Positions 15,001 to 18,000 of a DNA stretch of 32,179 nucleotides are shown piece by piece. The position numbers were made by a program. How positions within the stretch are numbered: the stretch's first letter is position 1; each line of letters begins with the position of its first letter. The stretch comes from a virus (Duplodnaviria; Heunggongvirae; Uroviricota; Caudoviricetes), in the IMG/VR virus record IMGVR_UViG_2939521961_000007. One strand, given 5' to 3'.

Positions 15001-18000
15001 CAAACAAAACCCGCCCACAAGCGGGTTTTGTTGTGCCACTTATCTCGGATAGACATGGTGAATGCGCTGGTGGAGGAGATAAGGGTGATTTTTGTATGCT
15101 TGCAACATTGATTTCGTAACGTTATTATCCTGCGCCCGGCCCTTTAGCTCAGTGGTGAGAGCGAGCGACTCATAATCGCCAGGTCGCTGGTTCAAATCCA
15201 GCAAGGGCCACCAACCGCCACTAGCCATCAGGAAAGAGCGTCAACCCTTTAAGTTGAGTGTGCGAGGTTCGAGTCCCCGGTGGTGGTCCATTATCGGTAT
15301 TCTGCGTTGTTAGCTCAGCAGGACAGAGCAATTGCCTTCTAAGCAATCGGTCACTGGTTCGACTCCAGTACAACGCGCTACACTTATTTTCCCGGCTCGC
15401 TTTTGCGGGCCTTTTTTGTATCTGCGCCACGCCCGGCGCATACCAACCACAGAGCCTTTCGGGGGGGGGGGGGAGCTTACGGAGTGGTCAGTGTGACTTT
15501 CTCTGTGGGCAGATCGCTCCCGGGCGTTGGCTCACCCACCCAAAGGAACGTCACGATGTTTGGTATTTTTGGTAAAAAAAGCCCGCAGAGCGGCAACGGA
15601 AATTAAAAAGTTTGAAAAACGCGATCTGGCACAGGTGGTGATTAACGCCGCCTACCTGGTGGCCTATGCAGATGGTGAATGTGAGGCTTCCTAGAAAGCG
15701 AAGATCGAACAGGTACTGCGTAATCAGCCTGCGCTGTACGCGTTTACGTCAGAAATTAATGCGATTAGCGCAACCATTATCGGTCAGCTGGATACGAACT
15801 TTAAAACTGGTCGTCGTGCGGCGTTACGTGAGATCGAGGATGTGAAACACGATACGCGTGAAGCGGAAGATGTGCTGGATGTGGCGGTGGCCATTGCGGA
15901 GGCAGACGGCGAAATTGAGCCGGAAGAGCGCAAGGTGCTGGAAGAGATTGCCGGTGTTCTGGGTCTTCGTCTGGAGAATTACCTGTGACGGTAAAACTGC
16001 GCCTGACTGTGGCTGCACTCCTGCTGTTTCTGGTGGTGATGGTGGATTTCACCAGCAGAATCATGTCGGTGCTGGCGGATGGGGTGCTGGTCTGCGGCAT
16101 TATGGTATTGCTGTGGCCGGTGATAAAAAGAAACAGCCTGCATAATGCTTGATTTTTTTGTTTGCTGTTTATTAAAAACACTTCTGCATGGTGAATCCCC
16201 CTGTGCGGTGGGGCAATCAGCAAGAAGGAATATGGGGTAATCGCGGATTCAGGTGCTGATACTGAATTCACCGGGAGGCACCCGGCACCATGCTTTGCCA
16301 CAAAAGTGTTATTTCTGTTTTTCTCAAACTATCATCGTTATCCCTTTATTTTCGGCTGCGCATGGCGCGGCCTTTTTTTTACGACCAGCCACTGGCAGAT
16401 GGTCATCCTGTGATTTGATTCCGCTTCCGGCTTTTTAACTCTGTTCCTCTACACGGGAGAAATTCGATGTCGATTAAACATTACGATGTTATCAGGGCGG
16501 CGTCGCCGTCAGACCTTGCGGAAAAGCTGACACACAAACTGAAAGAGGGCTGGCAGCCATACGGCGGACCGGTTGCCATTACGCCGTACACACTGATGCA
16601 GGCGGTGGCTATTGAAGGAGAGCCACAGGTCGGCCCTTCATCTGAGCCGGATTGGTACTACGTCATCGTACTGGCCGGGCAGTCCAATGCCATGGCTTAC
16701 GGTGAAGGGCTTCCGCTGCCGGATTCATACGATGCTCCGGATCCGCGCATTAAACAGCTGGCGCGCCGCAGTACAGTTACGCCGGGTGGGGCTGCCTGCA
16801 GATATAACGATATTATTCCGGCCGACCACTGCCTGCATGATGTGCAGGATATGAGTACGCTGAATCATCCGAAGGCAGACCTGAGCAAAGGGCAGTACGG
16901 CTGTGTCGGCCAGGGGTTACATATTGCCAAAAAACTGCTCCCGTATATCCCGAATAACGCGGGGATCCTGCTGGTACCATGCTGTCGTGGTGGTTCGGCA
17001 TTTACCCAGGGCGCGGAGGGGACATTCAGTGCGGACACGGGGGCCAGCCAGGATTCGGCGCGCTGGGGTGTGGGTAAACCGTTATATCAGGACCTGATTG
17101 CGCGCACCAAAGCTGCATTACAGAAGAACCCGAAAAATGTGTTGCTGGCGGTGTGCTGGATGCAGGGAGAGTTTGACATGAGCGCCGCCACCCACGCACA
17201 GCAACCTGCGCTGTTTACAGCCATGCTGACACAGTTTCGTGCTGACCTCTCCGTGTTTAACGCGCAGTGCCATGGTGGCAGTGCTGCAGATGTGCCGTGG
17301 ATTTGTGGTGACACGACGTATTACTGGAAAAATACCTACGGCACCCAGTACAACACCATTTACGGGGCGTACAAAAACAGGGAGAGTGAGGGCGTTTATT
17401 TTGTGCCCTTCATGACAGACGGTAACGGCGTCAATACCGCCACTAACGCGCCGGCAGAAGATCCGGATATTCCGGCATCAGGATATTACGGTGCGGCATC
17501 GAGAACGAATGGAAACCAGGTATCATCAAACCGCCCGACACATTTCAGTTCATGGGCGCGCAGGAGCATTATTCCGGATCGTATGGCAACCGCTATTCTG
17601 AACGCAGCCGGGCGCACCTCAGCCTTCATCAGTGGTAAGGCACCGGAAATCAAACCCTCGCCCGGCGGCAACACGCCATCGGGTCCGTCTGCAGATACGT
17701 CCGTTCGCACAATCTCCCTGCTGCCGGCAGCCGGAGAGGCTGCTGCGCAGGGCTGGAGCATTAAGGATGGCGGAATTCAGTTGTCAGATGGTGTATTTAA
17801 GATCACCAAGCAGAGCAATAAAACCTGGTCCCTGACGCATCCGGTGGATGACGCAATTACCCTGCTGACACAGGGCGGCAGACTGACCTGTAAGTTCCGC
17901 CTGTCAGGCGCACTGACCAACAATCAGTTCGGGCTGGGGATTTATCTGTATACGGATGCTCCCGTTCCTGATGGTGTGGCGATGACGGGTACCGGTAATC

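Follow-up and report, generated by a model that had tools for sequence, protein, structure and literature searches.

The window considered here, the whole 32,179-nucleotide stretch of IMG/VR virus record IMGVR_UViG_2939521961_000007 (Caudoviricetes), carries three neighbouring tRNA genes on the + strand, to which ARAGORN assigns the anticodons CAT, TTT and TCT. The subject of this report is the middle gene, at 15215-15290. In our judgement it is probably a damaged allele of a prophage tRNA(UUU) descended from argN, and an inactive tRNA pseudogene, its loss of function being predicted from a lesion in the D-stem.

Both the sequence and the ARAGORN drawing give an incomplete cloverleaf. The acceptor stem (CCGCCAC/GTGGTGG) forms seven pairs, one of which is G3.U70, and the anticodon stem (UCAAC/GUUGA) forms five Watson-Crick pairs; U8, A9, a variable loop GUGUG, the T loop UUCGAGU, a discriminator U73 and an encoded CCA are all present. 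In the D arm, GCC-AUCAGGAAA-GAGC, only G10-C25 and C11-G24 pair, fewer than the three to four contiguous pairs of a canonical bacterial elongator tRNA, and the D-loop retains G18, G19 and A20. The anticodon loop of seven nucleotides reads C32 C33 U34 U35 U36 A37 A38; position 33 thus departs from the canonical U33, although the loop length and A37 are as expected. C33 is very rare in elongator tRNAs. The acceptor, anticodon-stem and T-stem pairing, the T-loop consensus UUCRA, U8, A14, G18 G19 and the CCA otherwise conform to a canonical tRNA, apart from the acceptor G.U pair and a mismatch, A51.C63, in the T stem (CGAGG/CCCCG), where four of five positions pair. The original prediction, made from the sequence alone, had described the two-pair D-stem and the loop CCUUUAA with C33 just as we find them; its description of the acceptor arm, T arm and CCA as canonical stands for the CCA and, with one G.U pair, for the acceptor, but not for the T stem. 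As C33 cannot make the U-turn, an anticodon shifted by +1 (U35 U36 A37, pairing with UAA) was also considered, and was set aside as unsupported.

Covariance models do not accept the gene as an ordinary tRNA. At the gathering threshold, Rfam gives only the two flanking tRNAs (72.5 and 68.1 bits). When the 321-nt cluster alone was searched at a permissive E-value, the Rfam tRNA family RF00005 had no reportable match over the middle gene, membership among canonical tRNAs being set at 29 bits for that family, and the best match in the clan was to tRNA-Sec at 15.7 bits (E = 1.7). A selenocysteine tRNA was rejected, because the long variable arm, the 8/5 or 9/4 acceptor/T geometry and the UCA anticodon are all missing. 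The outcome that would have refuted the original prediction, a high covariance score together with a canonical anticodon, was therefore not obtained. Existing annotations differ: RefSeq/PGAP calls a tRNA-Ile and a tRNA-Arg at this locus and nothing in between, and the DDBJ records of 'PPompW' prophages, which contain the same cluster as the window, label the middle gene tRNA-Lys.

The three genes of the window align with the ileZ-argN-argO cluster that phage 933W and numerous further Stx phages carry between Q and stx, and the middle gene is homologous to argN and lies where argN does, between ileZ and argO downstream of Q. The 933W argN, with anticodon UCG, reads CCGCCAU UA GCUC AUCGGGACA GAGC G CCAGC CUUCGAA GCUGG CUGCG CGGGG UUCGAGU CCUCG AUGGCGG U CCA, and the middle tRNA differs from it at 17 positions (77.9% identity; 78-84% across argN of 933W and the Stx phages). 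The two have in common the C1-G72 start, U73, the A20 D-loop, the T-loop UUCGAGU and the encoded CCA. Unlike argN, the middle tRNA has the loop changes U33C, C35U and G36U, pairs 27:43, 30:40 and 7:66 changed on both sides, and a deleted U12, and it scores below 16 bits in the covariance model against about 55 for argN. C35 is a major identity element for arginyl-tRNA synthetase (ArgRS), and the anticodon UUU of the middle tRNA lacks it. By these sequence comparisons the middle gene is an argN homologue and yet not a tRNA-Arg. This is in accord with the original prediction that it would not fit a standard Arg tRNA and might read an unexpected codon; the anticodon would read AAA/AAG (Lys), where argN is expected to read CGN.

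The nearest relatives of the middle tRNA lie elsewhere in the argN family. IMG/VR was scanned with the 17-mer TCAACCCTTTAAGTTGA and then again with positions 33-36 left free, and these scans, together with phage and genome records, gave a family set of about 205 copies and 46 distinct sequences. The set falls into a UCG type (C/UCAGC-CUUCGAA-GCUGG) and a UUU type (UCAAC-CCUUUAA-GUUGA); the only other anticodons in the sample are two singletons, UCU and GCG. C33 is present in every sampled UUU-type copy, and the exact 17-mer anticodon arm of the middle tRNA is common to more than 100 lambdoid prophage contigs. In the family alignment 96.9% of cells are paired as in a cloverleaf, against 28-54% in slid controls, and three pairs have changed in a compensatory manner from the UCG to the UUU type (7:66 from U-A to C-G, 27:43 from C-G to U-A and 30:40 from G-C to A-U). 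This level of pairing and these two-sided changes show that selection has acted on tRNA structure in both types. The loop CCUUUAA, C33 included, is an inherited trait of the lineage rather than a product of decay. In the prophage tRNA slot near stx and the late genes, a single scaffold comes with either of two anticodons, UCG or UUU; compensatory changes connect the two forms, and recombination shuffles them.

With 66 copies, one UUU allele is commoner than any other. Its D-stem, GCUC/GAGC, is complete and its acceptor stem is made up entirely of Watson-Crick pairs; it scores 44.4 bits in Rfam, and is annotated tRNA-Lys by PGAP in a tRNA-Ile/Lys/Thr/Gly cluster. The middle tRNA has the same arm, UCAAC-CCUUUAA-GUUGA, on the argN scaffold, and is 97.4% identical to this intact prophage tRNA-Lys (75 of 77 positions the same). 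With prophage tRNA-Lys(UUU) genes, such as ECSMS35_RS05950 of E. coli SMS-3-5 and the gene of phage vB_EcoS-689R5, it further shares C33, A51.C63 and U73, and their clusters have a promoter, a position downstream of Q and a 1-nt spacing from ileZ as in the window. What sets these genes apart from the window is a D-stem of four pairs, G3-C70, the higher score, annotation by PGAP, and the host-like Thr and Gly genes that follow in place of argO. The intact allele forms a complete cloverleaf that can be called by tRNAscan/PGAP, and the window allele does not. Intact alleles are widespread: at least 80% of a Lys-Thr-Gly query is covered in 629 complete E. coli genomes, and the isolated phages Evi and vB_EcoS-689R5 carry UUU-type alleles with a complete D-stem. 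In a one-genome-per-species collection, an exact scan with the 17-mer found UUU-type carriers in E. coli and Shigella flexneri only; the other 36 matches lie in unrelated contexts and were discarded as chance. We also note a sub-lineage of the UUU type (L027, L046 and related IMG/VR loci) in which the near-universal U8 is replaced by C8, the D-stem has U11.G24 and the acceptor has U4.G69; in one of its branches A51-U63 is restored and the discriminator is G73.

The window allele departs from the common UUU allele in two respects only, the loss of U12 (GCTC to GC-C) and a change of C70 to U that gives G3.U70. The missing T falls between 15225 and 15226, where all other family members read GCTC or GTTC; within the sample, the GC-C deletion is seen in just two of the 46 distinct sequences (16 loci), namely the window allele and a single recombinant derived from it. 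The weak D-stem is thus, on the alignment, a single-base deletion private to the window allele (hereafter delta-U12). The original prediction had taken the oddities together as one non-canonical tRNA; they are real, but they have separate origins, the loop being a trait of the lineage and the D-stem a private deletion. The loss of U12 abolishes the U12-A23 pair and places C13 opposite A23, and C13-G22 could form if A23 were bulged. Nearest-neighbour energies, which leave aside tertiary contacts and base modifications and count the A.C position as unpaired, give the cloverleaf -15.4 kcal/mol, compared with -20.4 once the T is put back into that sequence; the minimum free energy (MFE) fold is more stable than the cloverleaf by about 8 kcal/mol, and by 2.7 with the T in place. 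The covariance scores descend in steps, from 55-56 bits for argN to 44.4 for the intact UUU allele, 37.0 for phage Evi and below 15.7 for the window allele. The single-sequence MFE fold of the middle tRNA is not a cloverleaf (z = -1.36); it is uninformative, because the MFE folds of the intact relatives are not cloverleafs either.

The probable course of events is that the middle tRNA is still transcribed within the ileZ-argO precursor, that the delta-U12 transcript folds badly into the L-shape, and that its product is most likely poorly processed, charged or stable, so as to contribute little or nothing to decoding; the gene would then be a pseudogene or a strong hypomorph. Drift would account for the persistence of the allele, the defective prophage being a long-term resident that is retained by the host for the type III effectors it encodes. 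Decay is supported by the neighbouring argO-type gene, which has no encoded CCA, and by the fate of the middle slot elsewhere: phiP27 has a grossly degenerate middle gene and Stx2c_2409 has lost part of its own, both with ileZ and argO intact. In these two phages, as in the window, tRNA structure has been lost at the same locus; unlike the window, where the lesion is one base, they have undergone extensive rearrangement or deletion, and none of the tools calls a middle tRNA there. Lesions are also found among UCG-type copies: one has a single-base deletion in the T stem, and several have either an A58G T-loop, an A.A mismatch at 6:67 or a 3' end that reads TCA. The middle gene, to judge from these sequences, is one that decays repeatedly in the family.

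Several observations weigh against the gene being inactive. ARAGORN still accepts the delta-U12 allele as a tRNA, a three-pair D-stem with a bulged A23 is possible, and neither the T-loop nor the bases of the tertiary contacts (U8, A14, G18, G19) are damaged. The allele is also common, being found in 225 complete genome records, in several serogroups and in a second cluster context, and is therefore not strongly counter-selected. It carries no further lesions, but since it sits in a near-identical block this has no power on the question of selection. We suggest that the gene be annotated as a member of the argN/tRNA-Lys(UUU) family that is probably a tRNA pseudogene, neither as a tRNA-Lys, as in DDBJ, nor left blank, as in RefSeq. 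A decoy role, which had been raised in the original prediction, finds support in none of the results, and gene decay explains the weak D-stem better.

The genomic setting is that of a defective prophage. Positions 1-20401 of the window are 99.96% identical to the ompW locus of E. coli O26:H11 11368, positions 12000-20000 are 99.9% identical to the lambda-like prophage there, and other enterohaemorrhagic E. coli (EHEC) genomes (O26, O103, O111) match the latter region equally well. The delta-U12 allele sits in the ompW prophage of O26/O103/O111/O145 EHEC, a prophage that has lost its structural genes, contains insertion sequence (IS) elements and many frameshifted genes, and has type III effector genes at its end. 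All PPompW prophages are reported to look defective, to go unpackaged and to be stably inherited (Nakamura et al., PMC8112680). In the 225 complete E. coli genome records, identity over a 116-nt stretch across the middle gene is 99% or higher, and the allele occurs in 16 other phage, IMG/VR or genome loci; because it recurs in so many genome records, it is real, and neither a chance match nor a sequencing error. In two loci (L032 and L094) the deletion lies in an Ile-Lys-Thr-Gly context with unrelated upstream DNA. Either the cluster has recombined internally, then, or the same base was deleted twice; in both cases the allele is tolerated. Carriers in the argO context show 0-3 differences in the block of about 320 nt from promoter to terminator, all in the promoter, spacer and terminator; because the whole block is near-identical, the invariance of the tRNA among carriers says nothing about selection.

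A different view of the gene is that the delta-U12 allele is still a working tRNA-Lys, and that the UUU/C33 family supplies a tRNA-Lys that is not cut by the anticodon nucleases PARIS AriB, PrrC and RloC; such a nuclease-proof tRNA-Lys would protect late translation of the prophage, or the lysogen. We consider this unlikely, although a number of observations fit it. Neither AAA nor AAG is a rare codon in E. coli, so that a phage tRNA-Lys is not explained by codon supplementation. The UUU arm is fixed across more than 100 contigs and differs from that of argN by compensatory changes. Lysyl-tRNA synthetase (LysRS) reads U34, U35 and U36 strongly, and from its anticodon the intact allele could plausibly be charged with lysine, charging with arginine being unlikely in the absence of C35. 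On the other hand, C33 removes the base of the U-turn and U73 replaces the A73 of tRNA-Lys, so that decoding and charging by LysRS are uncertain; the two changes should lower the charging and the ribosomal performance even of the intact allele. The loop of the middle tRNA is that of host tRNA-Lys, CUUUUAA, except at position 33, and the two tRNAs have no anticodon-stem pairs in common. PrrC cuts immediately 3' of U33 (PMC2610378), and AriB cuts host tRNA-Lys(UUU) at U36-A-A-U-C|A41, where U39A blocks and A41C impairs cleavage (PMC12409363); U39A and A41C are the changes found in the T5 tRNA-Lys (PMC12409363; PMC11464382). Positions 36-41 of the middle tRNA read UAAGUU rather than the host UAAUCA, so that it is without the AriB site, and C33 stands at the PrrC cut site. 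Yet three of the five anticodon-stem pairs are inherited from argN, and the missing AriB site therefore needs no selection to account for it. The Thr(UGU) and Gly(UCC) tRNAs found beside the intact allele are host-like, the former retaining the AriB site UAAUCA, and the window allele has a D-stem deletion in a prophage that no longer makes particles. Phage tRNA-Lys variants have been found to rescue infection from PARIS (PMC11464382) and from PrrC170 (PMC11555353). Like the prophage tRNA, the tRNA-Lys of T5 (against PARIS AriB) and of SP15 (against PrrC170) is phage-borne, has the anticodon UUU and has a stem-loop unlike that of the host at positions 39-41, which AriB reads; those phages are virulent with large tRNA arrays, their tRNAs keep U33, and resistance to cleavage and rescue have been shown by experiment, whereas the carrier here is temperate or defective and the tRNA is a structurally damaged copy known from its sequence. 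A related reading, in which the UUU/C33 family is an anticodon-switched tRNA on an Arg scaffold that acts as a nuclease-insensitive tRNA-Lys and the window allele is a decayed or attenuated copy of it, seems to us distinctly improbable. On that reading the insensitivity to PrrC, RloC and PARIS AriB would come from the altered position 33 and the foreign anticodon stem. An implication, were it true, is that tRNA-based counter-defence, which has been demonstrated to date in T5-like virulent phages only, would reach temperate phages of pathogenic E. coli.

The middle gene could also be kept as a tRNA-like processing signal and not as a decoder: a cut by RNase P at its 5' end would free the 3' end of ileZ, and its own 3' end would help to free argO. 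RNase P chiefly recognises the acceptor stem, T arm and CCA, which are the best-preserved parts of the delta-U12 allele, and the spacer between the ileZ CCA and the middle gene is a single nucleotide (A15214, within 15211-15215), compared with 7-9 nt (TATCACATA) in 933W-type clusters. In phiP27 the counterpart stretch of about 100 nt is retained although ARAGORN calls no tRNA in it, and it still aligns over the 5' acceptor and start of the D arm and over the T arm and 3' acceptor. We nevertheless regard this idea as very unlikely, because RNase E and exonucleases also take part in separating the tRNAs of polycistronic precursors in E. coli, and because Stx2c_2409 has an ileZ and an argO called by ARAGORN and no middle tRNA, its middle gene having lost 16 nt of the anticodon arm. 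As for an ordinary argN tRNA-Arg that was mis-parsed, or a sequencing or assembly error, the position of the gene in the cluster is indeed that of argN; the anticodon is UUU and not UCG, C35 is absent, the U12 deletion is outside any homopolymer run and the same sequence is found in hundreds of independent assemblies. The anticodon, the alignment and the recurrence across genome records allow us to dismiss it. Decay of an argN-derived tRNA(UUU) gene is thus the reading that we prefer, and the features of the locus that it concerns are collected in the table.

Table. Features of the tRNA operon in the window, with coordinates, strand and basis
Feature	Coordinates	Strand	Basis and remarks
Sigma-70-like promoter, TTGCAA-17 nt-TATTAT	15100..15128	+	9/12 match; 3 sites found vs 0.6 expected in region
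ileZ-type tRNA, anticodon CAU, intact	15138..15213	+	ARAGORN; Rfam 72.5 bits; PGAP tRNA-Ile; same in nearly all relatives
argN-family tRNA gene, anticodon UUU, delta-U12 allele, 76 nt	15215..15290	+	ARAGORN tRNA-Lys(ttt)
D arm of the middle gene	15224..15239	+	Alignments; GCC 15224-15226, loop AUCAGGAAA, GAGC 15236-15239
Anticodon arm of the middle gene, UCAAC-CCUUUAA-GUUGA	15241..15257	+	Sequence; C33 at 15247, UUU at 15248-15250
argO-type tRNA-Arg(UCU)	15304..15378	+	ARAGORN; Rfam 68.1 bits; alignment; 3' end CUA, relatives CCA
Intrinsic terminator-like hairpin and T run	15394..15419	+	Homologous place to the annotated terminator of 933W

The promoter lies at the place of the 933W 'pT', which is annotated as a putative tRNA promoter, and the order after the Q antiterminator gene is promoter, ileZ, middle tRNA, argO and terminator. 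The middle gene is very probably co-transcribed with ileZ and argO, because the promoter and terminator bracket all three. The 3' end of the argO-type tRNA (15376-15378) is CTA, where nearly all relatives have CCA, a change shared by phage Evi; it is a second small lesion in the operon, and the CCA-adding enzyme would have to repair the 3' end of this tRNA. In a comparison of relative diversity among ileZ, the middle gene and argO, in which the extraction of argO was rough and on which we base no conclusion, ileZ stands out as far more conserved.

The short 1-nt spacer accompanies the UUU-type 5' half and also the argN of F349/Stx2c type. The F349 argN (L001 1616-1692) resembles the UUU type in this spacer, in the A51.C63 mismatch of its T stem and in its 3' acceptor, GGUGGUGG, and the F349/Stx2c-type argN has an anticodon arm of UCG type in which 27 and 43 form a U27.G43 wobble. 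It looks like a reciprocal mosaic, and recombination between the two cluster types inside the tRNA gene is plausible on these comparisons. The Thr(UGU) and Gly(UCC) genes that follow the intact tRNA-Lys (L011 795-948, L263 2601-2754) are thrU- and glyT-like, and we take them to be host thrU and glyT. Of 5426 E. coli genomes, 5421 match part of the Lys-Thr-Gly query at 95% identity or more, the majority at 99% or more, and the two genes look host-derived, acquired by the phage, rather than diverged phage tRNAs.

Just past the tRNA terminator, a TerB-family (tellurite-resistance-like) gene at about 15560-15988 has an in-frame TAG at 15692, and is annotated as a pseudogene by RefSeq in the near-identical locus of O26:H11 11368. 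Just downstream of the same terminator there is a run of 13 G at 15461-15473, and the O145:H28 PPompW records have ISEc20 (IS110 family) inserted at about this run (L002 3363-4821). Finally, Rfam matches at gathering level were obtained in the window for sok at 11705-11854 (+), by hokD, for DicF at 4537-4588 (-) and for STnc100 at 16157-16329 (+), which are typical small RNAs of Qin/Rac-like lambdoid prophages.

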